Assembly (NCBI RefSeq): GCF_005885815.1
Contig: NZ_CP040602.1
Coordinates: 45,630-77,629, forward strand
Length of the DNA stretch: 32,000 nt
Origin: Thiomicrorhabdus sediminis
Lineage (GTDB): Bacteria; Pseudomonadota; Gammaproteobacteria; Thiomicrospirales; Thiomicrospiraceae
Reading direction: 5' to 3'
Under the pieces are notes generated by a model that saw nothing but the letters and a program-made list of their open reading frames with translations, did not search any database and was not told where the DNA came from. Shown piece after piece: positions 2,853-31,267 of this stretch. Numbering within the stretch: the first letter of the stretch is position 1; the number at the start of each line of letters is the position of its first letter. A program made the position numbers and the translations under genes.

Positions 2853-4420
2853 TGTTATTGGAGACGTTCCTACCGGTTCTGTGGCCTCTTTTGAGTGCTA
2901 TTGTTGTATTGCTTGCCAAAAGTGCCGGTTTTAAATGGCAAAGAGCCATCAGTTTTCTGGCGGTTTTTGTTTTAGTGGTAATCAACGCCAATTCGTTAAT
3001 GGTGGCTTTTGATTTGCCTCCACAGGTATACGCATTAGGTAACTGGGTGGCGCCTTTCGGCATCGTCATGGTTTTGGACCAGTTATCGGCGACCATGGTT
3101 TTGTTGACCTCTTTATTGGCCTTAGCCGCTATGTGGTTTGCGGTCAGACAACAGGTGGATCAACAGGGCTCTCATTTTCATGTGTTGTTCCAGATCCAGT
3201 TATTCGGTTTAAATGGCGCTTTTATGACCGGCGATGTATTCAACCTGTTTGTATTTTTCGAGGTTTTATTACTAGCTTCTTATGGTCTATTGCTTCACGG
3301 TGGTGGTCGATTGAAAACCCGCGCCGGTCTGCATTACGTTGCATTGAATTTGGTGGGTTCAACCCTGTTCTTGTTTGCCGTTGGTGCCTTATACGGTATT
3401 TTAGGTACACTCAACTTGGCGGATATGGCTGTTAAGGTGGCGAACCTATCGGCTGATGATCAAGGTGTGGTGGCTGCGGCTGGTCTGATGCTGTTATTGG
3501 TTTTCGGTATTAAAGCGGCGATGTTCCCTTTGTATCTATGGTTACCTCAGGCTTATGCCAATACCTCCGCTCCAGTCGCCGCCCTATTTGCGATTATGAC
3601 CAAGGTGGGGATCTATGCCATTATCCGTATTCACGGGACGCTTTTTGGCGATCAAGCTGGCGATTTATCCGCTATTCATATTCCATGGGTTTTATGGTTG
3701 GGGATTATCACTCTTGTTTTAGCTGCGCTAGGTGCTTTGGCATCGAGAAACTTGCGTGAACAGGTGGCTTATGTGGTGTTGGCTTCGATATCGACTTTAT
3801 TGATTGGTGTTGGAATTCACAGTCAAGAAGCTATGGCCGCGACTTTGTTCTATCTGATTCACTCTACCTTGATAGCTGGTGCCATGTTTTTGATTGCCGA
3901 TCTCATCCGTCAGGGACGTGGTGAGGCAGAAGACAATTTCATCAAGGCGCATGCCATGCCGAATGCCGTGCTGATGGGTGGTATTTTTATGGTCGCTGCG
4001 ATTGCTATGGCCGGTTTACCGCCGTTATCCGGATTTATGGGTAAATTACTGGTACTTTCAGCGGCTTTGGATCATGCTGATTTTTTCTGGATTTTGGCGG
4101 CTGTTCTGGTTTCCAGTTTATTGTTGATTATCGCCCTTGCCAGAGCCGGATCTTTGCTATTTTATAACGTATTGCCGAAAGAGCAGTGTCACACTGTGGA
4201 CGGTAAGCCGGTTTGTGAAGCGCCTAAATCACTCAATATAAAAGGGGTTTCTTCAATTATAGGGCTATTATCAGTAGCGATTATTCTGGTGATTTGGGCA
4301 AATCATTTCCATCAATTGACAAGATCAATTGCCACCCAGGTGTTCGATCAAAATTTGTATCAGCAGCAGGTGTTACAGGTTGAAACAATCGCTAATCCCC
4401 ACAAGGAGTTAGTGCAATGA
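2852..4420 (+). CDS. mrpD: Mrp antiporter subunit D (NuoM/N-like proton-pumping subunit)
   Basis: 522 aa polytopic protein with NuoN/M-like motifs (KAAMFPLYLWLPQAYANTSAPVAALFAIMTKVG). It overlaps the mrpC stop by 1 nt (TAATG). Confidence 0.9.
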   Translation: MLLETFLPVLWPLLSAIVVLLAKSAGFKWQRAISFLAVFVLVVINANSLMVAFDLPPQVYALGNWVAPFGIVMVLDQLSATMVLLTSLLALAAMWFAVRQQVDQQGSHFHVLFQIQLFGLNGAFMTGDVFNLFVFFEVLLLASYGLLLHGGGRLKTRAGLHYVALNLVGSTLFLFAVGALYGILGTLNLADMAVKVANLSADDQGVVAAAGLMLLLVFGIKAAMFPLYLWLPQAYANTSAPVAALFAIMTKVGIYAIIRIHGTLFGDQAGDLSAIHIPWVLWLGIITLVLAALGALASRNLREQVAYVVLASISTLLIGVGIHSQEAMAATLFYLIHSTLIAGAMFLIADLIRQGRGEAEDNFIKAHAMPNAVLMGGIFMVAAIAMAGLPPLSGFMGKLLVLSAALDHADFFWILAAVLVSSLLLIIALARAGSLLFYNVLPKEQCHTVDGKPVCEAPKSLNIKGVSSIIGLLSVAIILVIWANHFHQLTRSIATQVFDQNLYQQQVLQVETIANPHKELVQ

Positions 4421-5638: not shown

Positions 5639-6796
5639 ATGGGAAGAGTCAATAGTTTTATTGATACCATAACCCTAACAAAATTTATGATATGGATTGG
5701 AACCCAAGACCTTATGATTTTATCGACTGATATATTATATCTCGTTGTTTTAGGTGGCCTTTTGGGTGCTACTTTGAACTATTTTCAATTTGGTTTTAGC
5801 TCAAGTTTTCGTGCTTTGATTGTTGATAGAGACACTTTAGGGGCTCGTGCCTTGATTTGGATGTTAGCGATCGCCATTTTGTTATTTACACCAATGTTGG
5901 TGATAGGAGAATTGGATGAAGGTGATTATAACGGTTTTATTAGGCCGCTAACCTTAGCGATTCCTATAGGCGCCTTTATTTTTGGCATAGGTATGCAGAT
6001 AGGTTGCGGCTGTACTTCCGGTACTTTGAATCGGGTAGGGCAACTTCAACCTTTATCTTTTCTGACGCTGTTTTTTATGATTATAGGCGGAACTTTCGCT
6101 GCCTATACCTACAACAGCTGGCAATGGCTGCCTGCTGTTGCACCGGTTGCTTTTCAGCAGCAATTGGGTTGGCCAATAGGATTATTGGCACAACTGGCAA
6201 TATTGTTGTTGTTATACAAGTTTCTGTTGCGTTTTGAATATAAAAAACACCGTTATATCAACCCTCTGACAGAAAAGAAGTGGTCGTTTAAATTCGCACA
6301 TCCTTTCTTGAAAGCGGGTGTCTTATTGGCAATATTCAATGCGTTGTTATTTGCTTTTTCCGGCCAACCCTGGTCGATCAGTTTTGTCTTTCCTCTATGG
6401 GGTAAAGAGTTAGCGCAATGGGTCAGCTTACCTGTAGACTTTTTCTTTTGGGATTTTATACAGCAAAATCGAAATAGTTTTGAGCAAGGGGTCTTAAACA
6501 GTGTCAGTTTGACGACCTTTGGCGTTATTCTAGGAGCACTGGTAGTGACCCTTTTAGATAAACGCAAGAAGGTTCCATTTACCGCTTTGGGAGCAGCTAT
6601 GAGCATTATCGGTGGTTTGATTATGGGTTTTGGTGCGGTAATGGCATCCGGCTGTAATATAGGTGCCTTGTTCAGCGGTGTCGCTTCAGGAAGTTTACAC
6701 GGTTGGGTTTGGTTGGTGTTCGCTTTACTGGGGAATATTTTAGGAGTGATGATCAGAGCGCGTTTTATGCTATTGGCTAAGCCAGTCAAGGCTTAA
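5639..6796 (+). CDS. YeeE/YedE family inner-membrane sulfur-compound (thiosulfate-type) transporter
   Basis: Polytopic protein with the two family Cys motifs GCGCTSGTL and ASGCNIGALFSG in the two halves. The true start is uncertain: alternative ATGs lie at 5687 and 5714, and no clear SD precedes any of the three. Confidence 0.8.
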   Translation: MGRVNSFIDTITLTKFMIWIGTQDLMILSTDILYLVVLGGLLGATLNYFQFGFSSSFRALIVDRDTLGARALIWMLAIAILLFTPMLVIGELDEGDYNGFIRPLTLAIPIGAFIFGIGMQIGCGCTSGTLNRVGQLQPLSFLTLFFMIIGGTFAAYTYNSWQWLPAVAPVAFQQQLGWPIGLLAQLAILLLLYKFLLRFEYKKHRYINPLTEKKWSFKFAHPFLKAGVLLAIFNALLFAFSGQPWSISFVFPLWGKELAQWVSLPVDFFFWDFIQQNRNSFEQGVLNSVSLTTFGVILGALVVTLLDKRKKVPFTALGAAMSIIGGLIMGFGAVMASGCNIGALFSGVASGSLHGWVWLVFALLGNILGVMIRARFMLLAKPVKA

Positions 6797-16614: not shown

Positions 16615-16647
16615 AAAAAAACCCTTACTTTCATTCGAAAGTAAGGG
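16615..16647 (-). terminator. Rho-independent terminator of the DsrE-like/porin operon
   Basis: Perfect 11-bp stem CCCTTACTTTC / GAAAGTAAGGG with a 4-nt loop. On the minus strand it is followed by T7. Confidence 0.75.
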
Positions 16648-16714
16648 TAAAAAACGGCTAGCAAATTCTGGGTTCGCTATCAACCGTAGCAACGAAAATG
16701 GGTTTTTTAAGAAA

Positions 16715-19090: not shown

Positions 19091-19116
19091 TAACGAACCA
19101 GCTGGAAATTTATTCC
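19091..19116 (-). promoter_or_regulatory. ECF-type promoter candidate for the DsrE-like/porin operon
   Basis: On the minus strand GGAAT-N16-CGTTA, about 50 nt upstream of the start at 19041. This resembles the generic ECF GGAAC-N16/17-CGT pattern. Confidence 0.25.
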
Positions 19117-19189: not shown

Positions 19190-19218
19190 TTTACAAAAGG
19201 TGAAAATTTCATTACTAT
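19190..19218 (+). promoter_or_regulatory. Sigma70-type promoter candidate for the ECF sigma gene
   Basis: TTTACA (19190-19195), 17-nt spacer, TACTAT (19213-19218), 28 nt upstream of the ATG. Confidence 0.3.
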
Positions 19219-19825: not shown

Positions 19826-20518
19826 ATGAAAAATAGAATAGAAAATTATCAGTTACACGCCTATTTAGATGGCGAATTAACACATGAGGAATGCCTCGAG
19901 ATTGAGCAGGCATTGAAAGAAGATGCCGAATTACGTTTTAGATTGGAAAAGTTCAGTACCCTGAAATCTGATGTGAAAAAAGCTTACTTGAATTTACCAA
20001 TTGAACAATATGTTGCTACGCCTAAAGAGAAAAAAAGCAATCTTAAAGATGGTTATTTCAATATTGCCGCGTCATTGTTTTTGGGTGTTATGATTGGTGC
20101 CGGCTTGATTACCTATTCGGTTGAGCCTAATGTGATGAATTCAGCTTTGGTGGAGCAAAACCAAAGCAACAATCGATTTTTAGTGCATATTGATACCAAT
20201 GATATCGAAAAGCAGCATGCAGCCTTGTTGCAGATCGAGCAGATTTTTGTCGAATCGACCGATAAGGTGCAGGTTGATTTGGTTTCCAACAGTACAGGAA
20301 TCGAGATGTTGGATAAAAATAATCCTGCCACTGAAGAGTTGCAGGGTTTATTAAAACGTTTTGATGGGTTGACAGTGTATGCTTGTCAAAGAGCGCTAGA
20401 AAGAGCCCAAAAGGCTGGCAAGCCAATTGAACTGATTCCTGAAGCGGTATTCGATCGTCCGGCGATTGATCGTCTAGCTGAGCGTCTGACCTCTGGCTGG
20501 AAATACATCAAAATCTAA
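19826..20518 (+). CDS. Single-pass membrane anti-sigma factor with an extracytoplasmic DsrE-like domain
   Basis: The start lies 4 nt after the sigma stop, with an AGGA SD. The N-terminus is anti-sigma-like (LHAYLDGELTHEECLEIEQAL) but lacks the full HxxxCxxC motif. One TM helix (YFNIAASLFLGVMIGAGLITYSV). The C-terminal 120 aa align with the two neighbouring secreted proteins. Confidence 0.7.
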   Translation: MKNRIENYQLHAYLDGELTHEECLEIEQALKEDAELRFRLEKFSTLKSDVKKAYLNLPIEQYVATPKEKKSNLKDGYFNIAASLFLGVMIGAGLITYSVEPNVMNSALVEQNQSNNRFLVHIDTNDIEKQHAALLQIEQIFVESTDKVQVDLVSNSTGIEMLDKNNPATEELQGLLKRFDGLTVYACQRALERAQKAGKPIELIPEAVFDRPAIDRLAERLTSGWKYIKI

Positions 20519-20568: not shown

Positions 20569-21897
20569 TTGATGAGCCATTCTCCCACTTCCTTTGCTGA
20601 TGTTTTTCATCAACCGAATTACAAATCCCTATTCGCCGTTCAATTTCTTGGCGCCTTCAATGACAATTTGTTTAAAAACGCTCTGGTTATCTTGATCACT
20701 TTTAAGCTCAGTCAACAAATGACCGAGACAGGACTAATGATTACTCTGGCAGCAGGTTTGTTTATTTTGCCATTCTTCCTTTTTTCGGCAATGGCGGGGC
20801 AGTTGGCAGATAAGTACCCGAAAGCCTTGCTTATTAAAAAGATCAAGCTGGCCGAAGTCTTGATTATGCTGATAGGTGGTTTGGCTTTGCTTAACCAGGA
20901 CTTATGGTTACTGTTTTTCACACTGTTTTTAATGGGTACCCAGTCGGCTTTTTTTGGCCCGATCAAATACTCTATTTTGCCGGAAATCATGCCAGAGAAT
21001 CACCTGGTCAAAGCCAATGGCATATTTAGTGGTTCGACTTTTATTGCTATTTTGATCGGTACGATTTTTGGTGGCATTGGCATTATGCTGCCGGATGGAG
21101 AGCTGATTATGGCTAGTGCGGTAATACTGGTAGCCGGTATCGGTTATGGCTTCAGTCTTTTTTTATATTCCGATCAAACCAAAAACGGTGATATAAAAAT
21201 CGACTACAACCCCTTGCAAAGTACTTGGCAGGTTATTCAAGCCACCCGGGATTTCAAATTGGCGCGCTTTGCGGTCTATGCAATATCTTGGTTCTGGTTT
21301 ATCGGCGCAGTCTTGCTTAGCCAGATTCCGGCGCTGGTTAAATATGAATTATTTGCCGATGATAATGTTGTAGTTCTGTTTTTAACCCTTTTTTCTGTTG
21401 GTATCGCCATTGGTTCGACATTGGTCGCTAGGCAATCGGATTTTATCAGTTTGCGTTGGCACTGGGTCTGGTTGGCATCAATGTCCTTGTGTTTGCTGCT
21501 GACAGTGGTTTCAATTCAAGCGACAGATTTTGCGGATTTACAAAAATCGCTCAGCGTTTCACGTGAAACATTCTTCACCATTGAGCAGTTTATTGCCATT
21601 TATCCGCTTAATCTCACCATGCTTTTTTTGGCCTTGTTAGCCATTTTGGGCGGTGCTTATATCGTGCCGCTTTATACTTTGCTGCAGACACAAACTCCTG
21701 AGTTCGCCAGGGCACGTATGGTAGCGGTAAACAATATTGTTAATTCGTTTTTGATGGTACTTTCGGCAGTATTGATCATGATCGGGTTTGCCGTTAGCCT
21801 GAGCTTGTTGAATATGCTGTTGATTTTAGCGGGGCTTAATTTATTAGTTGCCTGGCTGGTGTTTGGTTATCGACATAGTAAAAATTTTATACAATAG
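20569..21897 (+). CDS. lplT: Lysophospholipid transporter LplT (MFS)
   Basis: MFS protein directly upstream of aas, as in the E. coli lplT-aas operon. The N-terminus is FAVQFLGAFNDNLFKNAL. The track start is a TTG; the ATG at 20572 is more likely. Confidence 0.8.
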   Translation: MMSHSPTSFADVFHQPNYKSLFAVQFLGAFNDNLFKNALVILITFKLSQQMTETGLMITLAAGLFILPFFLFSAMAGQLADKYPKALLIKKIKLAEVLIMLIGGLALLNQDLWLLFFTLFLMGTQSAFFGPIKYSILPEIMPENHLVKANGIFSGSTFIAILIGTIFGGIGIMLPDGELIMASAVILVAGIGYGFSLFLYSDQTKNGDIKIDYNPLQSTWQVIQATRDFKLARFAVYAISWFWFIGAVLLSQIPALVKYELFADDNVVVLFLTLFSVGIAIGSTLVARQSDFISLRWHWVWLASMSLCLLLTVVSIQATDFADLQKSLSVSRETFFTIEQFIAIYPLNLTMLFLALLAILGGAYIVPLYTLLQTQTPEFARARMVAVNNIVNSFLMVLSAVLIMIGFAVSLSLLNMLLILAGLNLLVAWLVFGYRHSKNFIQ

Positions 21898-21923
21898 TTA
21901 CAGGATTATTTTGAGATGTATAA

Positions 21924-24089
21924 ATGAAAAGCTTATTAAAACTGTTTGTCAAAGGCTTGTTCAAGCTGTGTTATCGAGTTGAAGTCAAAGGACTGGAAAA
22001 CTACCAGGCCGCTGAAAAAAGTGGCCGCCCCTTATTGATTATCGCCAACCATGTTTCCTTATTGGATGGCCCTTTACTGGACCTGTTTATTCCCGGTAAT
22101 ACCGCCTTTATGGTCGATAAATCTCATACCCAAAAATGGTTTGAGCGATTTATTCTCTCCATGAGCGAATACTTCACCGTTGATACCCATAGTCCTTATG
22201 CCGCCAAACACATGATTGAGGAGCTCAATAAAGGCAAGCAGTGCATGATCTTTCCTGAGGGAAGGATTTCCACTACCGGTGCCTTAATGAAGGTCTACGA
22301 AGGTACCGGACTGGTTGCCGATAAAACTCAAGCGGCGGTGCTCAGCGTGCATATTGGCGGTGCCGAATTGAGCCGCTTGTCTTATCTAGACGGCACTAAA
22401 TCGGGATTTATTAAACAGCAGTGGTTTCCTAAAATCACCATAAGCATTCAACCGCATACACAAATTAGCCATCCGCAAAACCTTAAAGGGACAGAAAAAC
22501 ACAAGTTCTATAAACAGGCGGTATTCAAGTTACTGCGGGATTCGAGTTTTTTTGCTGCCGAAACCAATCATTCGTTGTATGCAGCGTTAATTAAGGCCAA
22601 ACAAAAATATCACAGTAAGGATGTCTGCATAGAAGACATCAATGGTCAGAACCTTAGTCTGAAAAAATTGACTTTGGCATCGATCATTCTTGGTAGAGCT
22701 TTGAAGAAAACGCTCAAAAAAGAAAAGCGTGTCGGTTTGATGTTGCCGAACGTATCCGGTATGCCGGCGACCTTTTTCGCTTTGCAGGCATATGGTTATG
22801 TGCCGGCTATGATCAATTTCACCGCCGGTAAGGCGGCTATTGAATCGGCTTGTGTCACCGCAGAGCTGCAAACCATTGTCACTTCACGCCGCTTTATCGA
22901 AGCGTTTGAGATTGAAGCGTTGGTCGAGTCCTTGGAAGACAAGGTTCGCTTTGTTTATCTTGAAGATATTCGTAGTGAAATCGGTATTTGGCAAAAAATC
23001 AGCGGGCTTTTAACACCGGCGAAATCCTTACCGGGTTATAAGACCGAGACGCATTTCGAGGCTGTCGTGTTGTTCACCTCAGGCTCTGAAGGGGCGCCGA
23101 AGGGTGTGGTGCTATCGCATAACAATGTCACCAGCAACATTGAACAGGCGATATCGATGCTTAATTTGATTCCGACAGAAAAGGTTTTCAATGCGTTACC
23201 GACGTTCCACTGTTTTGGCTTGACGGCAGGTCTGCTTTTGCCGGTGTTAAAAGGTGCCAAGACCTTTATGTATCCATCACCGGTGCATTATGCGGTAGTG
23301 CCGGAAATGGTCTATCAGAGCAATGCCAAATATATTTTCGGTACCGATACATTCTATAGCGGTTATGCGCGCAAAGCGGACTCTTACGACTTCTTCAATT
23401 TGCGTATGATGATTGCTGGCGCAGAGCGTTTGCGCCCAGAGACTCGAGAGCTTTATGCGAATAAATACCATCAACCGATTTATGAAGGCTATGGAGTTAC
23501 CGAAACCACCCCTATTTTGGCGGTGAATATCCCAACCGCCTATAAACACGGTTCGGTAGGTCAGTTTGTACCCGGTATTGAATACCATTTGGAAGAAGTG
23601 CCAGGTATCAAGGATGCTGGCAGATTGTTGGTTAAAGGCCCAAATGTCATGTTGGGTTACCTGATGCCCGGTGAACCGGGTGTATTACAGCCGCCAACCG
23701 ATGGATGGCACGATACCGGCGATATTGTTCAGGTCGATGAAGAAGGTTATGTCTGGATCAAAGGCCGCGCCAAGCGTTTCGCAAAGATTGGCGGTGAAAT
23801 GGTGTCATTGACCGCGGTAGAGCGTTATATCAATAAGGCAAGCCCGGAAGGTCATCACGTGGTTGTCGCCGTGCCAGATGAACGTAAGGGCGAGAAGCTG
23901 GTGCTGGTGACCGATGATGAAGGCCTGAGCAGAAAAACGGTCAGTGATGCGGCAAGATTGGCGGAAGTAGCGGAATTGATGATTCCGAAAACGGTTATTC
24001 TGGTTGAATCGATTCCGGTATTGGGTACCGGTAAAACCAATTATCCGGAAGTACAGAAATTGGCCGAGCAGCATTCCGGCGGCAGTTGA
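21924..24089 (+). CDS. aas: Bifunctional 2-acylglycerophosphoethanolamine acyltransferase / acyl-ACP synthetase
   Basis: 721 aa. N-terminal PlsC-type acyltransferase (NHVSLLDG, FPEGRISTTG). C-terminal adenylate-forming domain (FTSGSEGAPKGVVLSH, YGVTET, GDIV...GR.KRFAKIGGEMVS). Confidence 0.92.
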   Translation: MKSLLKLFVKGLFKLCYRVEVKGLENYQAAEKSGRPLLIIANHVSLLDGPLLDLFIPGNTAFMVDKSHTQKWFERFILSMSEYFTVDTHSPYAAKHMIEELNKGKQCMIFPEGRISTTGALMKVYEGTGLVADKTQAAVLSVHIGGAELSRLSYLDGTKSGFIKQQWFPKITISIQPHTQISHPQNLKGTEKHKFYKQAVFKLLRDSSFFAAETNHSLYAALIKAKQKYHSKDVCIEDINGQNLSLKKLTLASIILGRALKKTLKKEKRVGLMLPNVSGMPATFFALQAYGYVPAMINFTAGKAAIESACVTAELQTIVTSRRFIEAFEIEALVESLEDKVRFVYLEDIRSEIGIWQKISGLLTPAKSLPGYKTETHFEAVVLFTSGSEGAPKGVVLSHNNVTSNIEQAISMLNLIPTEKVFNALPTFHCFGLTAGLLLPVLKGAKTFMYPSPVHYAVVPEMVYQSNAKYIFGTDTFYSGYARKADSYDFFNLRMMIAGAERLRPETRELYANKYHQPIYEGYGVTETTPILAVNIPTAYKHGSVGQFVPGIEYHLEEVPGIKDAGRLLVKGPNVMLGYLMPGEPGVLQPPTDGWHDTGDIVQVDEEGYVWIKGRAKRFAKIGGEMVSLTAVERYINKASPEGHHVVVAVPDERKGEKLVLVTDDEGLSRKTVSDAARLAEVAELMIPKTVILVESIPVLGTGKTNYPEVQKLAEQHSGGS

Positions 24090-24107: not shown

Positions 24108-24147
24108 GAAAACCTCCTCTGCTTATGGCTTTGGAGGTTTTTTTATT
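24108..24147. terminator. Bidirectional rho-independent terminator between convergent aas and batD
   Basis: AAAACCTCC-15 nt-GGAGGTTTT stem, with T-runs following on both strands. It overlaps the batD stop codon. Confidence 0.7.
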
Positions 24148-25795
24148 TTGGTCTATAAAGTGCGGTGAGAGCCGAATCCGTTTTGGCGGAATGATCGGTT
24201 TTATTGAAAGCGTTCATCTCTTTTTGGATACTGGCAATGCAGTCATCCGCCAATTCTGCATTTTGATAAAGATGCTTTTCCAAAGCCAGAAGTTGTTCCT
24301 GCAATAAGGGGTTTTCGATGTCATGTAATGATTCGATGTGCTGCTCAAGACGCAGTTTCTGCAAGGTTTGATGGTAGAACTGTGGCAGAGATTCAACCGG
24401 CAGTGCTTTCACTTCAGGCAAAGTAGTATGCGCTTGTATGCTTGTAGATAAGGTTTTAAGCGCGTTTAAACGCTGTTGTAATCGATAAACCCAAAAAAGC
24501 GTGCTCAGCCATAACACAACCATAATTAAGCTGATGTAGAACCAATAACCGCTGTCGGAGTTGTGCTCGCTAACAACCGTTGTTGTTTGGCCATCAATTG
24601 GCGTTGTTGGGGCGATTGAATTTAATGCCGCTAGCACTTCAATATTCTGTGCCGCCAATTCAGTCACCTGAAAATGCTGGGATTCGGTATTCCACCAGCG
24701 AATCGATATTTTCGGAACCGTGATGGTTCCTGTTGCTGTCGGTACTAAGGCTAGTTTAAGGGTTTTTATCGCCGTCACACCATTGCTATTGAGCTGCTGA
24801 CCATCCTGTTCGCTATCGATATAAACCTTTAAATCCTTGCCGCCATCAATATTTATTTTCGGCAGCTGGGTTGATTTCAAACCTTCGACACGAATAGTGA
24901 TTTCGCGACCGATACTATCGCCCAAATGAACCTGATCAACAGAATTTAACCAATTTTGATCAATCCTGACCTGTCTAGCCGGCAACCAGGGGGGAGTGTT
25001 TTGCGGAATAGGCAATACCTTGATTTTGATGGCTTCGGCACTGGCTTGGATGCCTTTTTGGCGGCCACCGAGACTGAGCATTCCGGTAAACATAGGTCCG
25101 GGAATAGTTAAAACCCCACTTTGTTGGGGAAACAACGCATAACGCCATTCGTAAACGGTATAAGCTTGACCATTGATGGTTTTGCCATAGACCGACTGCT
25201 CTTTTAAGGTTTCCGATTGGGCATTGGCGAAATTGGGCGGACGAATATTGCCGTTTAAAAGCGTGCCTTGCTGGTAGAAACGCAAGGTATAGATAACTTG
25301 CTGTTGGACAAATACCTCGGACAAGTCGGTTTTGGCTTCAAGAAAATAAGGTTTGACTCCGGCTTTATAGCTCGGCTTGGTCACCTCAATCGGGTAGGGT
25401 TTGCTTTTAACGCCTTTGAGTTCAAAAGGTGGGATCATCAATTTACCTGTCTGTTTCGCCACCAGACGCAATTGCCAACGGGTGGTGGAACTGAAATCAC
25501 CATTAATAATCTGTATTTGATTGCTTTGCTGGCGGCTCAATACATCGAATTGGTCCTGCAAAATAGAGGTATCCAGACTGGCATTGGCGATTTGAAAGTC
25601 TGTTTCCACTATGACAGTGATAATGTCGCTCAACTCAACCTTGTCGCGGTCGGCTTTAACGCTGATGGAGTCGGCAATGGCACTATTAGCGGCCAAGCAT
25701 AAAACACCAAGCAGACAAATTTGCATAAAACAATTGCTGAGCCGCTTGGTTGAGGAAAACAAAAAAAACTCTGTTGTACGGTAGCTATTTACCAT
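24143..25795 (-). CDS. batD: BatD family protein (oxygen-tolerance protein)
   Basis: 550 aa. N-terminal signal-like segment (MQICLLGVLCLAANSAIA), a large beta-rich ectodomain, one C-terminal TM (YWFYISLIMVVLWLSTLFWVY) and a cytoplasmic tail. It is the last gene of the MoxR/Bat operon. The start overlaps the upstream stop (ATGGTAA); an alternative start lies at 25726. Confidence 0.7.
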   Translation of the reverse strand: MVNSYRTTEFFLFSSTKRLSNCFMQICLLGVLCLAANSAIADSISVKADRDKVELSDIITVIVETDFQIANASLDTSILQDQFDVLSRQQSNQIQIINGDFSSTTRWQLRLVAKQTGKLMIPPFELKGVKSKPYPIEVTKPSYKAGVKPYFLEAKTDLSEVFVQQQVIYTLRFYQQGTLLNGNIRPPNFANAQSETLKEQSVYGKTINGQAYTVYEWRYALFPQQSGVLTIPGPMFTGMLSLGGRQKGIQASAEAIKIKVLPIPQNTPPWLPARQVRIDQNWLNSVDQVHLGDSIGREITIRVEGLKSTQLPKINIDGGKDLKVYIDSEQDGQQLNSNGVTAIKTLKLALVPTATGTITVPKISIRWWNTESQHFQVTELAAQNIEVLAALNSIAPTTPIDGQTTTVVSEHNSDSGYWFYISLIMVVLWLSTLFWVYRLQQRLNALKTLSTSIQAHTTLPEVKALPVESLPQFYHQTLQKLRLEQHIESLHDIENPLLQEQLLALEKHLYQNAELADDCIASIQKEMNAFNKTDHSAKTDSALTALYRPK

Positions 25796-27741
25796 GGTTT
25801 ATCCGTTGTTGTCTGATGGTTCTGATTCTGTTGATATTGATATTCGAATTTACGTTTTAGAAACAGTCCGGGTTGATCTGGAATCTGCTGTAACCAGTTA
25901 CGCTGCGCCTGTTGCTGTTCGGTTAGTGGCTCGTCTGAATCGAATTGAGCAGCCTTATTATCGCTTGGGTATTTTTGTGATTCTTTAGCAGTTTTATCAG
26001 TTAATCGAGGTTTTTTGTCGCTATCTGCATTATTTTGTTGCGAACTGCCTTGATCTTGTTTGTTGATATCGGCGTCTTTTTGTTTGCTTTCTTGTGCTTG
26101 TTGGGAAGCACCGGCTTTATCCTCCGCAGACGGATTGGCTTTTGATTTAGGATCGGCCGACTGTTTATCTCTGTTTTGAGCGTTTTGCTTTTGTTGTTGC
26201 CCTTCGTGCTTGGTGTCTTTAGTTTCTGTTGTTGGAGAAGCTTGCTCGGTCTTTTCGCTGCTTTCAGTTTTAGCGGATTCTTGTGGGTGTTGTTTGCTAC
26301 GGTTCTGATTTTGTTCGGCTTTGTTTCGCTGTTGATTAAGTTGCTCAACCACGGCCAGGTTGTCTTTGGCTTGCTGCCAATCAGGTTTGAGTTGCAATGC
26401 CTGTTTATAGGCTTTTATCGCTTCTTCAAGTTGGTTATCCATCGCCAGGGCATTGCCCAAATTATAAAACCCTTGGGCACTCTTATCGGTAGCAAAAAGT
26501 TGAGCCGCTTCTTTATATTTGCCTAGCTTATATAAAGCGCTGGCGCGCCATTGAGGGTCGGTAAATTGTGCTTCGGCAGCGCTATACTGGTTGTTTTGCC
26601 AAGCTTGGTAACCGAGTTGATCGGGTGATTTGAACAGATCGCTCCATACCGTTTCATTAGCTTGAGCATAGCTTGGTTGTGGTTGCAGGGTTAAAAGTGG
26701 TGAAATGAAAAACAGGCTGAATAAAATGCCGCGACGATAAAACAGAGCCACCGCTGGAATAATCAAAAACAGTAAAAAGATGCCGACATCCAATGGATGT
26801 TGTACCGATTTCCCCGGCTCTTTTTCATTATGGGTTGCGCCCTTATCAAATGGCGGTAACAAGCTGCCGGTTTGCTGTTTGGCGGCATTAAACTGGGTCC
26901 AGTTGAATGTCACACCTCGTTGATTGGCGACTTGCACCAATTGCCTAAAATTATCCAGTGGCAGGGTGGGATGCACTAATTGACCGCTATTGTCTTTAAG
27001 CAAGCCGTAATTGGGAATTTGTACTACGCCACCGGCTTGTGTGCCAACGGTCATTAGACTAATGCTGTAATCATGTTTTGCCAACCATTCGCTGATTGGT
27101 TGGATTTGGTCGTTTTCCAGATCATCGGTGATCCAGATAATATGCCCTTGCGTGACCTGATTACCCTTTAACAGTTTAGCCGCCAGTTGCAAAGCTGATA
27201 GAGGATCCGAGCCATAGCCCGGCATCAGCAAGGGATCGAGTGATGGCAATAGGTTGAGCAGGGTCGCGTTGTCTTCGGAGATCGGACTGATCGTATGCGC
27301 CGAACCGGCATAAGCCACCATCCCGGTGGCATATTCAGGGTGTTGTTTTAACAGGTCGGTAAGCAGATATTTAATGCGCTGCAAGCGCTCTGGCGGTATA
27401 TCGTCCGCCATCATCGACAGCGATAAATCCAAAACAATCACGTTACCTTGATGAGACTTTTTTGCCGGAATCTCTATTGCTTTAAGCCACGGGCCTGATA
27501 GGGCAAATATCATTAGAATCCAGACAAAAGCGAGCAAGGCGAGAATCATTTTCTGATTCAGGCTAGGTCCTTGTTGTGCGCTATTTGCTAGCAGTAGCTT
27601 TTGGAACTTGGCGGCAATAATCTGGTTCCAGGCACCGTTTTGATGTTGTTTTTGCCAGCCTAGATAAAGCAATAGCAACATCGGCAATAGAGCCAAAAAC
27701 CACCAAGGACGTAAAAAGTGCAATTGATTAAGGATTTCCAT
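25789..27741 (-). CDS. batB: VWA domain protein fused to TPR repeats and a low-complexity tail (BatB-BatC like)
   Basis: N-terminal TM, VWA MIDAS motif VLDLSLSM, internal TM pair, TPR repeats (YKLGKYKEAAQLF...YNLGNALAMDNQLEEAIKAYKQALQLKPD), then about 150 aa rich in Q/K/E/S/D. Confidence 0.8.
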   Translation of the reverse strand: MEILNQLHFLRPWWFLALLPMLLLLYLGWQKQHQNGAWNQIIAAKFQKLLLANSAQQGPSLNQKMILALLAFVWILMIFALSGPWLKAIEIPAKKSHQGNVIVLDLSLSMMADDIPPERLQRIKYLLTDLLKQHPEYATGMVAYAGSAHTISPISEDNATLLNLLPSLDPLLMPGYGSDPLSALQLAAKLLKGNQVTQGHIIWITDDLENDQIQPISEWLAKHDYSISLMTVGTQAGGVVQIPNYGLLKDNSGQLVHPTLPLDNFRQLVQVANQRGVTFNWTQFNAAKQQTGSLLPPFDKGATHNEKEPGKSVQHPLDVGIFLLFLIIPAVALFYRRGILFSLFFISPLLTLQPQPSYAQANETVWSDLFKSPDQLGYQAWQNNQYSAAEAQFTDPQWRASALYKLGKYKEAAQLFATDKSAQGFYNLGNALAMDNQLEEAIKAYKQALQLKPDWQQAKDNLAVVEQLNQQRNKAEQNQNRSKQHPQESAKTESSEKTEQASPTTETKDTKHEGQQQKQNAQNRDKQSADPKSKANPSAEDKAGASQQAQESKQKDADINKQDQGSSQQNNADSDKKPRLTDKTAKESQKYPSDNKAAQFDSDEPLTEQQQAQRNWLQQIPDQPGLFLKRKFEYQYQQNQNHQTTTDKPW

Positions 27742-28769
27742 TACAGCGCGCTCCTAAACCGCCATGCGGCGGCGAAAAAGCTTAATAACAGAGCCAAAGC
27801 CAAAGGCCAAATATAGAGTTCACTCCGTAACCGGTAGCTGTAGATATCATGCTCAACCGATTCCAACTGGTTGATGTGCTGATAAATCTGTGCCAGTTGT
27901 TTGGTGTCGTTGGCTTGAAAAAAGGCACCCCCGGTGATTTTGGCGATTTGTGTTAGCGCTTCGATATCCATATCCGGCTTTTGCGCGAGGAAATTATCCA
28001 AACCGACCCGGCTACGAACCTTACCGACCCCAACCGTATAGATCTTCAAGCCCATTTTCTTTGCCTGCTGGGCGGCATCGAACGGATCTACTTCGCCGTC
28101 TGTATTGGAACCGTCTGTGAGCAGAATAAGCACCGAATCGCTGAGTTTTTGTTGCTGTTTATATTGGTTGAGGTGTTTAAGGCTCAGACCTATCGCATCA
28201 CCGATAGCGGTATTGTTTCCGGCCATACCGATTTCGGTTTCCATTAGCAGGGTTTTTACCGTATTTAGGTCGTAGGTCAGAGGACTCTGTAAAAAAGCCT
28301 GACTGCCAAAGACAATCAACCCCATTCTGTCGCCTCGGCGTTGGTTGATAAACTCGGAAACCACCGCTTTGACCGCTAGCAGTCGATTGACTTCATCGCC
28401 ACCTAGATACATATCGGTTTTTTGCATACTGCCGGATAAATCGACGGCTAACATCATCTCCTTGCCGCTGGCTTCAAAGGGTGTGCTATCAAGATAGTAA
28501 ACCGGACGGGTTGCGGCCAGAATCAAGCTGATCCAGAGTAAAACCGCCAGAACCGATAGCCTCGATTTTTGTTGTTGCGGATCGATTAGGCTTTGTTCAG
28601 GCATTTGTCCATTGATGCGTTGAATGATTTGCGGTGCCAATAGCGGAGACTGCTGCTGTTTGACCGGTTTTATGACAAAGCGCAGTAGCCAGGGTAGTGG
28701 CAATAAAGCCAGCATCCACGGCCAGAGCAGATCAACTTGTGCAATATGATTCAGCAAACCGTTCCACAT
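27741..28769 (-). CDS. batA: VWA domain-containing membrane protein (BatA like)
   Basis: Two N-terminal TMs, MIDAS motif AVDLSGSM, LLTDGSNTDG and a C-terminal TM. TAATG overlaps on both sides. Confidence 0.85.
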   Translation of the reverse strand: MWNGLLNHIAQVDLLWPWMLALLPLPWLLRFVIKPVKQQQSPLLAPQIIQRINGQMPEQSLIDPQQQKSRLSVLAVLLWISLILAATRPVYYLDSTPFEASGKEMMLAVDLSGSMQKTDMYLGGDEVNRLLAVKAVVSEFINQRRGDRMGLIVFGSQAFLQSPLTYDLNTVKTLLMETEIGMAGNNTAIGDAIGLSLKHLNQYKQQQKLSDSVLILLTDGSNTDGEVDPFDAAQQAKKMGLKIYTVGVGKVRSRVGLDNFLAQKPDMDIEALTQIAKITGGAFFQANDTKQLAQIYQHINQLESVEHDIYSYRLRSELYIWPLALALLLSFFAAAWRFRSAL

Positions 28770-29317
28770 TATTGGTGATGTCCTTTAATCCATTTGTAGG
28801 CATAGTCATACCAGATCTGCACCGCATTTTTTACCGAAAGAGTTTGCTGATTGGCTATTTGTATTTCGGTTCGCTCCTGATAACCTAGCATCATAATCGC
28901 ATTGAGATTATCCGGTTGGGCAATGAACTTGCAGCGGTTCTGCAAAAAATCGAGCCAGGCTTGATCTATCAATGCCGCGGTGGCATTACGTCCATAAGCG
29001 CTGAGTGCGACCTGCTTTACCAATTGGTTGATTTCAGCGATTTTTTCGTTGGCGCTAAGATGTTCGGCCTGTTGAATGACCTGTAATTTTTTTAGTGCCT
29101 GATGGCGGTAGCGATTGCGGCGTTTCTGCTCGAGGAAATACCAAGTCACACCGACAATCGCCATTATCAGAGCGAAAATCAGTAGCCAGGAACTATAAGA
29201 AAGCGGCCACCAGCCGACAGGGTCGGGCAATTGAATATCGTGCAGTTGTTGGCCAAGCGCTGCACTTAGCTGAGTCGCATCATTCAGGTTATTCGGGTTG
29301 TCCATTACATTGGGCAC
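28769..29317 (-). CDS. DUF4381 domain-containing membrane protein
   Basis: 182 aa. Contains LHDIQLPDPVGWWPLSYSSW followed by one TM. It sits between DUF58 and BatA, as in Bat operons. Confidence 0.6.
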   Translation of the reverse strand: MPNVMDNPNNLNDATQLSAALGQQLHDIQLPDPVGWWPLSYSSWLLIFALIMAIVGVTWYFLEQKRRNRYRHQALKKLQVIQQAEHLSANEKIAEINQLVKQVALSAYGRNATAALIDQAWLDFLQNRCKFIAQPDNLNAIMMLGYQERTEIQIANQQTLSVKNAVQIWYDYAYKWIKGHHQ

Positions 29318-29332
29318 AAGACTTCGCCTCCA

Positions 29333-30268
29333 TTAGACAATTAATTGTTGTTGCATTAAAGCCGACATCGGGTTTGCCGCACTGGATACCTCTATCAGGG
29401 CGATACCGAGTTGACTGCATCGATCAAAGGTTTGCCGCCACTGCTTTTGATAAAGGTCTTGATAGGCGGCTTGGGTTTTTGAGTTACTGCTATCGAGTTG
29501 CAGCCAGTTATCGCTCTGCAAAGAGGGGGTCAGGCTAAGCCAACCGAAGTGTGGTAGCTGTTTTTCCAAAGGATCATAAATGTGGATCGCGCTGACATCG
29601 GCTTTTTTGCTCAATTGCAGTAATTCTTTGGTAGCGCATTGCGTCATATTGATCATATCGCCGATTAAAAACACCTTGTGGTTGGCGCTCGGGCTCAATA
29701 AAAGTTGTTTGAGTGCCTGAGGCCAGTCTTTGGCGTTGGGTGATTGCGGTTGACGCAACTGGTTTTGTAAGGCAATCGCCTGTTGCAGGCAAAAACCCCA
29801 CTCCGAGGTTTGACGTTTTGCCGCCTGCCAGTGGTGTTTTTGCCCGTTGAACAGCAGAGCACCGATACGTTCATTTTGCTGTAATGAGACCCAGCCCAAG
29901 ATTGCCGCGATATTTAATGCCTGCGCCGCTTTGGTATGGACTCGCGAGCCGAAGAACATATTGGCGGTCTGTTCAACCACCACCAAGGCGGGACGTTCGT
30001 TTTCCTCAATAAACAGCTTGGTATGCGGTTTTTGCGTGCGTGCGGTGACACGCCAATCTATATGGCGGATGTCGTCACCGGGTTGATATTGGCGTACCTC
30101 GCTAAAGCTCATGCCACGACCTTTTTTCAACGCAGTATGCTCACCACTGTGATGGGCGAGTTGATTGGGCTGGTGTTTGAGTTTCTTTTGCTTCACGTGA
30201 AACCTGAACGCCACCAGTTCATCCAATTGGCTGTACAGACTGTCATTATCCATAGCATTCGCAGTCAT
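29333..30268 (-). CDS. DUF58 domain-containing protein
   Basis: Canonical DUF58 core GEHTALKKGRGMSFSEVRQYQPGDDIRHIDWRVTART. It lies immediately downstream of moxR. Confidence 0.85.
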   Translation of the reverse strand: MTANAMDNDSLYSQLDELVAFRFHVKQKKLKHQPNQLAHHSGEHTALKKGRGMSFSEVRQYQPGDDIRHIDWRVTARTQKPHTKLFIEENERPALVVVEQTANMFFGSRVHTKAAQALNIAAILGWVSLQQNERIGALLFNGQKHHWQAAKRQTSEWGFCLQQAIALQNQLRQPQSPNAKDWPQALKQLLLSPSANHKVFLIGDMINMTQCATKELLQLSKKADVSAIHIYDPLEKQLPHFGWLSLTPSLQSDNWLQLDSSNSKTQAAYQDLYQKQWRQTFDRCSQLGIALIEVSSAANPMSALMQQQLIV

Positions 30269-30298
30269 AACTAAGCATCATCTCAAGATAGCGCTGAA

Positions 30299-31267
30299 TC
30301 AGGTTACCGGAACCAGTTGAAGAATCTGGTTGATAACCGTATCGCAATCAACGCCTTGTGCCTCGGCCTCGAAACTCAATAACAGCCGGTGGCGGAAGAC
30401 ATCATGGATCACCGCCTGAACATTGTCTGGGCTGACAAAGTCTTTACCGTGTAACCATGCATGGGCACGGGCGCAGCGAGACAGCGCAATGGTAGCGCGC
30501 GGGCTGACACCTACGGCAATCTGCTGGGCAAGTTCATCGGAGTAGCTTTTGGCTTCGCGTGTAGCCATGACCAGTTCGACCAGATAGGTTTTGACATTGT
30601 CGGCCACATGGATATCGAGAATCTGCTGGCGTGCCTCGAACAGCTTATCCTGAGTTAAATGGCTGGCTGCAGCGGTGGCTTCTTTGCGACGCGCTTCGTT
30701 TTCGACCAGATCAAGAATTTGACGTTCGCTTTGTGCATCCGGGTAGCCGATATTGACATGGAGCATAAAACGGTCGAGCTGCGCTTCCGGCAATGGATAG
30801 GTGCCTTCCTGCTCCAACGGGTTTTGGGTCGCCATGACCATAAAAAGCTGTTCCATCGGTAAACTGCGTTTACCGACACTGACCTGACCTTCAGCCATCG
30901 CCTCAAGCAAAGCGGCTTGCACCTTAGCGGGCGCACGGTTGATTTCATCGGCAAGGATCAGGTTATGGAAAATCGGCCCGGACTGGAATTCGAAAGCGCC
31001 GTTTTCCGGGCGATAGATTTCGGTACCGGTAATGTCAGACGGCAGCAAATCGGGGGTGAACTGAATGCGATGGAAGCTGCCTTCGATAAAATCGGCAAGG
31101 GTTTTGATTGCCTTGGTTTTGGCAAGACCCGGTGGGCCTTCGACCAGTAGATGACCATCGGCTAACAGTGCAATTAACAGACGTTCGGTTAAGTGCTGCT
31201 GACCGATAATATGTTGATTGATTTGCTGTTGTAGTTGTTGAAAATCCTGTGCGAGGTTATTGGCCAC
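30299..31267 (-). CDS. moxR: MoxR family AAA+ ATPase
   Basis: Walker A GPPGLAKT, Walker B LILADEINRAPAKVQAALLEAM, ATQNPLEQEGTYPLPEAQLDRF, 322 aa. Confidence 0.92.
   Translation of the reverse strand: MANNLAQDFQQLQQQINQHIIGQQHLTERLLIALLADGHLLVEGPPGLAKTKAIKTLADFIEGSFHRIQFTPDLLPSDITGTEIYRPENGAFEFQSGPIFHNLILADEINRAPAKVQAALLEAMAEGQVSVGKRSLPMEQLFMVMATQNPLEQEGTYPLPEAQLDRFMLHVNIGYPDAQSERQILDLVENEARRKEATAAASHLTQDKLFEARQQILDIHVADNVKTYLVELVMATREAKSYSDELAQQIAVGVSPRATIALSRCARAHAWLHGKDFVSPDNVQAVIHDVFRHRLLLSFEAEAQGVDCDTVINQILQLVPVT

Follow-up and report, generated by a model that had tools for sequence, protein, structure and literature searches.

To our knowledge, how reduced sulfur is sensed in the periplasm of chemolithotrophic Gamma- and Betaproteobacteria, and how these organisms regulate Sox and sulfur uptake, is largely unknown. 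The known regulators are the cytoplasmic ArsR-type protein SoxR and the ECF26 pairs of extracytoplasmic function (ECF) sigma and anti-sigma factors, whose sensing mechanism is itself unknown. We describe here a gene pair that may represent a further route: in a 32-kb stretch of DNA from Thiomicrorhabdus sediminis (hereafter the window, meaning the whole stretch analyzed), an ECF sigma factor gene is followed by the gene of an anti-sigma factor whose C-terminal half is a DsrE-like domain. Switches formed by an ECF sigma factor and its anti-sigma factor are known in kind, but an input domain of the DsrE type is previously undescribed.

The nearest functional precedent is found in S. meliloti, where the ECF26 factors RpoE1 and RpoE4 respond to sulfite and control sorT; as proposed for the pair described here, they are tied to inorganic sulfur oxidation and have adjoining targets (PMC3511301). 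Their anti-sigma factors carry a COG5662 domain (PMC3511301) where this one has DsrE, and their hosts are Alphaproteobacteria. SoxR regulates genes for periplasmic thiosulfate oxidation (PMC13122954) but, as a cytoplasmic one-component repressor, is unrelated to this anti-sigma factor in both sequence and mechanism.

In its general plan the protein resembles the class I anti-sigma factors of the RseA/MucA type and the zinc-binding anti-sigma (ZAS) factors RsrA and ChrR: it has a zf-HC2/RseA_N N-terminus, one transmembrane helix and a gene directly 3' of that of an ECF sigma factor. It departs from the RseA type in that a DsrE-like domain takes the place of RseA_C in the periplasm and that a gene for an RseB-like partner is missing here, and from the ZAS factors in lacking the motif HxxxCxxC.

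As for the domain itself, MTH1491 (PDB 1l1s) and ST0148 (PDB 2pd2) have the same fold from end to end, a cysteine at the same position and a C-terminal G-W-x-Y-I in common with it. These archaeal proteins are cytoplasmic, stand alone at about 110 residues and have no known function, whereas the domain described here is predicted to be periplasmic and is fused through a transmembrane helix to an anti-sigma domain. DsrEFH, TusBCD, DsrE3A and DsrE3B/3C belong to the same superfamily (Foldseek matches to 2hy5, 2d1p, 3mc3 and 2qs7, E from 1e-4 to 8e-4), although the relation in sequence is remote. Characterized DsrE carriers form trimers and have one conserved reactive cysteine that carries a persulfide or thiosulfonate (PMC4175335, PMC11094781); they act as cytoplasmic relays to Dsr, sHdr or tRNA thiolation and take no part in regulation.

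An initial annotation of this gene, made by a model from the letters of the DNA, had held that such a domain, if used as an ECF sensor, would be a new type of input. Literature searches turned up no published account of a DsrE domain in an anti-sigma factor, and in the main text of the paper on ECF classification DsrE and sulfur do not come up. The claim of novelty is tempered by database labels, in that JGI/IMG already calls some members of the family 'intracellular sulfur oxidation DsrE/DsrF family protein'; NCBI labels members as hypothetical or zf-HC2 proteins.

Homology and Fold of the C-Terminal Domain

If the resemblance of the C-terminal domain to the two DsrE-like proteins encoded next to it (proteins A and B) were due to chance or composition, it should vanish under profile comparison and against shuffled controls. 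The C-terminal half was unmatched when the window protein alone was scanned with Pfam and NCBIfam. One result would seem to favor chance: pairwise BLASTP of the C-terminal 132 residues against the two neighbors gave only marginal values (E = 0.009 and 0.005). However, a 40-sequence profile of the anti-sigma DsrE-like domain scored 48.0 bits with protein B and 31.8 bits with protein A, the cysteines being in register, and at most 1.9 bits with any other open reading frame of at least 80 residues in the window, while 1000 shuffles of each neighbor reached maxima of 6.7 and 9.0 bits. Comparison of this profile with one built from free periplasmic paralogs at many loci (hhalign) gave a probability of 99.84% and E = 1.9e-30 over 118 aligned columns, again with the cysteines in register. 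The end-to-end homology claimed in the initial annotation is therefore well founded, and chance similarity can be dismissed outright, as it can from the common best PDB match and from the fold.

That common match is 1l1s (MTH1491), which is the best PDB hit for the anti-sigma domain (E = 3.8e-19, covering residues 5-112 of 113) and for both free neighbors alike (E = 7.8e-8 for protein A and 2.3e-10 for protein B); the same domain profile matches 2pd2 (ST0148) at E = 8.9e-7. An AlphaFold model of the domain alone, built with 40 diverse sequences, is of high confidence (pLDDT 91.8, pTM 0.83), and its best Foldseek match in the PDB is again 1l1s (TM 0.81/0.92, rmsd 1.3 Å). All ten of the top Foldseek matches (1l1s, 2pd2, 8uja, 1jx7, 3pnx, 2hy5, 2d1p, 2qs7, 3mc3 and 2fb6) belong to the DsrE/YchN superfamily and take in entries of the YchN, DsrEFH, TusBCD and DsrE3A types. 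Scanned singly, 29 of the 144 family members used below match Pfam DsrE (PF02635), at best with 2e-7, the window protein alone falling below significance. By sequence, fold and cysteine, the C-terminal 115 or so residues belong to the DsrE/YchN superfamily and to its MTH1491 branch.

A recent local duplication of one of the neighboring genes was also considered, but with the profile of the fused family the window domain reaches 137.6 bits and the neighbors reach 48 and 32. On these scores we reject a recent copy of the genes next to it and regard the domain as an ancient member of a large family of such fusions.

Anti-Sigma Domain and Membrane Topology

At the other end of the protein, Pfam zf-HC2 matches residues 10-31 (E = 3.3e-5; 24.3 bits, against a curated cutoff of 22.2) and RseA_N matches weakly; across the family, 41 of the 144 members match zf-HC2 and nine match RseA_N. 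The motifs quoted in the initial annotation are all present in the reading frame at 19826-20518, YLDGEL at residues 13-18, LTVYACQRAL, and SGWKYIKI at the C-terminus. HxxxCxxC, the zinc/redox motif of ZAS factors, is absent from the window protein, as had been noted, and from every other member (0/144); inspection of alignments places Q, E and E where the zinc-motif residues would align. Because this motif is lacking, the anti-sigma factor is not a cytoplasmic zinc/redox switch, which agrees with the earlier suggestion that redox sensing would not take place on the cytoplasmic side.

A full-length AlphaFold model, built with 10 close homologs, is poor overall (pLDDT 52), with better values in the N-terminal helices at residues 7-14, 20-32 and 34-55 (pLDDT 71-89). 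Foldseek found nothing significant with this model, the cytoplasmic part of MucA being a weak resemblance (probability 0.77), and phmmer found no match in the PDB for the N-terminal 102 residues.

Topology was assigned from hydropathy and the positive-inside rule rather than with a dedicated predictor. A hydrophobic 19-mer scoring above 1.4 is present in 140 of the 144 members, its median start being residue 78, and lysines and arginines are concentrated on its N-terminal side: the window protein has four in the 15 residues before the segment and none after it, and the family means are 3.52 and 0.72. Because the N-terminus matches zf-HC2/RseA_N and must meet a cytoplasmic sigma factor, and because there is a single transmembrane segment with this charge bias, the DsrE-like domain is predicted to lie in the periplasm, where the initial annotation had put it. 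The protein thus shows every feature of class I transmembrane anti-sigma factors for which we tested; its inhibition of the sigma factor is predicted.

Conservation across the Fused Family

A HMMER scan with the C-terminal profile against 1.84 billion cluster representatives (clusters at 50% identity) returned 614 proteins with E ≤ 1e-3, of which 293 reach E ≤ 1e-10; an earlier word-indexed search had returned 10 homologs. Nearly all of the best 150 matches are 215-263 residues long and share the architecture that the initial annotation had proposed searching for, an anti-sigma N-terminus, a transmembrane segment and a C-terminal DsrE-like domain; most of the few shorter proteins among them look like gene fragments.

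Despite the low identity of the 144 representatives in our conservation set to the window protein (22-30% for most of them), three residues are invariant: D15 of the anti-sigma domain, C187 and W225. At least 90% conservation is found at H121 (138/144), N155, G158, A186, G198, A213, R220, G224 and Y227. In the domain model the invariant cysteine lies between the strand at residues 78-82 and the helix at 84-92 (domain numbering); it aligns with the cysteines of MTH1491, ST0148 and both neighbors, and a cysteine is kept in all of the free paralogs that adjoin fused genes. The spacing given in the initial annotation is exact if the cysteine itself is counted, which puts it 44, 45 and 45 residues from the respective C-termini (C187 of 230, C118 of 162 and C105 of 149). 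Because 142 of the 144 members have exactly one cysteine beyond the transmembrane helix, an intramolecular disulfide switch is excluded, and this pattern fits a single reactive thiol.

Taken as a whole, the interpretation offered in the initial annotation is supported, in that an alignment no better than shuffled controls, a cytoplasmic domain and a fold unrelated to DsrE/YchN, each of which would have counted against it, were not what we found. That Cys187 binds sulfur, and that sulfur is the signal, we infer by analogy with the characterized carriers.

The family is large and almost entirely environmental, and the hosts identified are mainly sulfur-oxidizing Gamma- and Betaproteobacteria, with Thiomicrorhabdus, Thiohalobacter and Thiogranum as the sulfur oxidizers among them. 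Those that can be named are Thiomicrorhabdus, Thiohalobacter, Thiogranum, Methylomarinum and Nitrosomonadales, together with metagenome-assembled genomes of Gamma- and Betaproteobacteria. One locus (L010, DSDH01000421.1) comes from a bin labeled Phycisphaerales and is 71% identical to the metagenome-derived query P0163, and a locus close to it from a gammaproteobacterial metagenome-assembled genome (L011) is 65% identical to the same query; the Phycisphaerales label is probably a binning error and not a true planctomycete occurrence.

Gene Neighborhoods and Promoters

We compared 24 loci with upstream sequence (one locus scan used a 12-sequence subfamily). An ECF sigma gene lies directly 5' of the fused gene in all 24, the sigma factors being homologous to that of the window with E-values from 1e-25 to 1e-81. 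A divergent free DsrE-like gene is present in 13 loci, 10 of which also have an orthologous porin adjoining; most of these type-1 loci have one free paralog, not the two of the window. Nine further loci (type 2) have neither a DsrE-like nor a porin neighbor and are often the second copy in Thiohalobacter or Thiogranum genomes. Their neighbors vary (SulP permease, multihaem cytochrome, Crp-like regulator, SPFH/NfeD), the exception being a conserved secreted protein of about 531 residues in three Thiohalobacter loci (L016:2598-4193, L018:1-1346 and L024:3472-5234, all on the minus strand). This protein has no match in Pfam, NCBIfam or the PDB; its gene in L016 is preceded by an ECF-type promoter motif (4290-4312, minus strand), and it may be an alternative member of the regulon.

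Three metagenome-assembled genomes, two of uncultured Thiohalobacter and one of Thiogranum, carry two copies of the ECF/DsrE-anti-sigma pair (L014/L016, L013/L024 and L020/L025). Two of these genomes have the DsrE-like/porin operon beside one copy but not beside the other, and in the remaining genome one copy lies directly behind a contig end. The arrangement points to subfunctionalized paralogous switches.

Inspection of the divergent regions together with pattern searches yielded a common ECF-type motif, (G/T)GAATAAA-N12-14-C(G/A)TC. In the window, the pattern GAATAAA-N12-14-CRTY has a single match in 32 kb, where 0.40 would be expected, and the motif stands before the free DsrE-like gene at the same place and in the same orientation in the window and in loci L001, L005, L008, L009, L011, L012 and L021. 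Outside Thiomicrorhabdus, nearly every locus, type 2 included, has it upstream of the sigma gene as well. The case for these promoters is comparative evidence and not proof; on this basis we infer that the ECF sigma factor has the DsrE-like/porin operon as a target and that most genera outside Thiomicrorhabdus autoregulate the sigma operon. In Thiomicrorhabdus, a predicted sigma-70-like promoter lies upstream of the sigma gene (TTTACA-N17-TACTAT in the window); taken alone, this match does not exceed chance, but the other two loci of the genus (L001 and L005) keep both the TTTACA element and the surroundings of the -10 hexamer. Such a promoter in place of the ECF-type motif suggests constitutive rather than self-amplifying expression of the sigma operon there.

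A distant member of the family has a direct association with thiosulfate oxidation genes of the sox type. On metagenome contig k141_1006502 (L008:7806-11736), the ECF/anti-sigma pair is followed, after a gap of 68 bp and on the same strand, by genes for a cytochrome c and for soxY, soxZ, soxA and soxB, with a free DsrE-like gene divergent upstream. Because no separate ECF-type promoter was seen before these sox genes, the sigma operon may be transcribed together with them. In at least this one organism, soxXYZAB is probably also driven by the sigma factor.

What the Domain May Sense

The arrangement of the locus leads us to propose an ECF sigma/anti-sigma switch in which the periplasmic DsrE-type domain would be the sensor. 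The sigma factor would recognize the motif given above and drive the DsrE-like/porin operon. Periplasmic reactive sulfur, such as polysulfide or tetrathionate-type compounds, would modify Cys187, acting on it directly or being handed on by the free paralogs, with which the domain may form trimers; the modification would inactivate the anti-sigma factor through a conformational change or regulated proteolysis; and the freed sigma factor would raise both outer-membrane anion uptake and periplasmic sulfur-carrier capacity.

Modification of Cys187 by sulfur is proposed because the DsrE proteins that have been characterized use their conserved cysteine to carry sulfur: that of DsrE3A reacts with tetrathionate to form a Cys-S-thiosulfonate (PMC4175335), and those of DsrE3B and DsrE3C are persulfidated by polysulfide, trimers being general among DsrE-type proteins (PMC11094781). 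RpoE1 and RpoE4 of S. meliloti set a precedent for ECF sigma factors that respond to sulfur compounds (PMC3511301). Within the family itself, the invariant cysteine, the coupling to a sigma factor, the common promoter motif, the sox genes of the distant member and the sulfur-oxidizing hosts all favor the proposed switch. By analogy with the carriers, we would give an even chance to the proposal that Cys187 is persulfidated or thiosulfonated, directly or via the free paralogs, and that this inactivates the anti-sigma factor.

Several points weigh against this proposal. The regulon is not uniform, given the nine type-2 loci without DsrE-like or porin neighbors, and the ECF-type motif, when looked for upstream of the sigma gene, was absent in the window and in the genus Thiomicrorhabdus. 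The link of C187 to Cys78 of DsrE comes only through weak alignments of the free-paralog profile with 3pnx and 2fb6, in which the cysteines are aligned. Our literature searches found no demonstration of sulfur-transfer activity for proteins of the MTH1491 branch themselves, and the signal could be another thiol-reactive species.

A more specific version of the sulfur proposal, which we hold only tentatively, is a relay within a mixed trimer: the free carriers, loaded with sulfane or thiosulfonate sulfur imported through the co-regulated anion porin, would pass it to Cys187 and so release the sigma factor, which would then control the uptake of sulfur and, in certain lineages, Sox genes as well. 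If true, protein persulfidation or thiosulfonation would here gate an ECF system for the first time, and MTH1491-type DsrE proteins would have their first assigned function.

Mixed trimers could also serve another purpose. The anti-sigma domain, instead of being a chemical sensor, might dock the secreted DsrE-like paralogs and report their amount, folding or loading, so that the switch would operate by product feedback. DsrE-type proteins are generally trimeric, DsrEFH and TusBCD being rings of three paralogs (PMC11094781); the window encodes exactly three paralogous periplasmic modules, and a free paralog adjoins the fused gene in 13 loci. Mere docking, however, needs no invariant single cysteine, which all 144 members have; nine loci have no adjacent free paralog, and most type-1 loci have one rather than two. 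We regard such partner sensing as unlikely in itself, but it can be combined with the relay version of the sulfur model.

Cys187 might instead sense thiol redox state, a metal or a metalloid, possibly together with the near-invariant His121 and without carrying sulfane sulfur, either through an intermolecular disulfide formed by oxidants or through binding of thiophilic Cu(I) or of As(III)/thioarsenate. The single reactive cysteine and the conservation of His121 (in 138 of 144 members) would suit such a mechanism, and the expression of DsrE/F-like genes changes under arsenite in Thioalkalivibrio (PMC6620896). The sox genes and the sulfur-oxidizing hosts point, on the contrary, to sulfur oxidation; no metal-resistance genes are adjacent, and the intramolecular form of a disulfide is excluded by the single periplasmic cysteine of 142 members. 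This explanation seems to us quite improbable. That the domain is a relic, a ligand-less structural module (for instance for protease recognition or stabilization) in a switch under general envelope stress, would accord with the failure of the single-sequence Pfam match and with a function proven for no member, but it is very hard to reconcile with the strong and specific conservation of C187, W225, Y227, H121, N155, G158 and R220 at about 22-30% identity to the window protein and with the retained association with paralogous carriers, porin and sox genes.

Returning to the sulfur-responsive switch, the family suggests an undescribed route by which reactive sulfur turns bacterial genes on, and it offers a concrete, testable sensor: one invariant cysteine on a small, well-predicted domain, together with a defined promoter motif. 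The candidate regulon is compact, consisting of the porin for anions and the DsrE-like carriers of the periplasm, joined in some organisms by sox genes. Such a switch would bring a new input domain into the ECF repertoire and sulfur-carrier chemistry into the periplasm, and would give a first functional handle on the MTH1491 branch; an orthogonal sulfur-responsive sigma/anti-sigma pair could serve as a biosensor.

Layout of the Locus and Other Genes in the Window

The features of the locus are collected in Table 1. The anti-sigma protein is 100% identical to a T. sediminis protein annotated only as 'zf-HC2 domain-containing protein', and its start codon follows the sigma stop codon after 4 nt. 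The sigma protein consists of Sigma70 regions 2 and 4 only, in about 190 residues, as is the case for ECF factors, and scores 77.9 bits with NCBIfam TIGR02937 (cutoff 42.9). Its gene is separated by a divergent intergenic region of 204 bp from that of protein B, which is 28% identical to protein A (E = 4e-13). By eye, the N-termini of both proteins read as signal peptides, in which a short basic part is joined by a hydrophobic one and by an AxA-like site.

Table 1. Features of the ECF sigma/anti-sigma locus and the divergent operon, with positions in the window.
Feature	Positions	Strand	Basis or remark
Terminator-like hairpin, 12-bp stem and T-run	16621..16648	-	3' of porin gene
OprO/OprP-family (phosphate/anion-selective) outer-membrane porin, 430 residues	16715..18007	-	Pfam Porin_O_P E = 3.7e-8; last gene of divergent operon
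Secreted DsrE-like protein A, 162 residues	18055..18543	-	Pfam DsrE E = 1.5e-11
Secreted DsrE-like protein B, 149 residues	18592..19041	-	Pfam DsrE E = 2.5e-5; first gene of divergent operon
ECF-type promoter (putative), GGAATAAA-N13-CGTT	19092..19116	-	51 nt upstream of start codon of DsrE-like protein B
Predicted sigma-70-like promoter, TTTACA-N17-TACTAT	19190..19218	+	Consensus scan; upstream of ECF sigma gene
ECF sigma factor gene, 191 residues	19246..19821	+	Pfam Sigma70_r2, Sigma70_r4_2, Sigma70_ECF
Anti-sigma factor gene, 230 residues	19826..20518	+	Open reading frame; anti-sigma domain, one transmembrane helix, DsrE-like domain
Cytoplasmic anti-sigma domain (predicted), residues 1-55, without zinc motif	19826..19990	+	D15 invariant, L18 nearly invariant (144 members)
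Single transmembrane segment (predicted), residues 78-98, N-in/C-out	20057..20119	+	Hydropathy maximum from residue 78
Periplasmic (predicted) DsrE/YchN-fold domain, residues ~115-230, MTH1491-like branch	20168..20515	+	Profile, AlphaFold, Foldseek
Codon of Cys187, only periplasmic cysteine	20384..20386	+	C in 144/144 members

Some 13 kb upstream of the locus is a gene for a Sulf_transp membrane protein of the YeeE/YedE type (5639-6796, plus strand; Pfam E = 1.3e-50), which adjoins an Mrp-type antiporter operon and the gene of a stand-alone response regulator; no link between it and the ECF locus was established. Directly 3' of the anti-sigma gene (20569-24089, plus strand) are genes for a major facilitator superfamily transporter and an acyltransferase/AMP-binding fusion, which we read as an LplT-Aas-like pair for lysophospholipid recycling. 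The pair is syntenic in all Thiomicrorhabdus loci and not in those of other genera, and because its synteny is so limited it is probably unrelated to the switch. Beyond it, genes for a MoxR-type AAA ATPase and for DUF58, DUF4381, VWA, VWA-TPR and BatD-domain proteins (24143-31267, minus strand) appear to form an ordinary Bat-type operon.

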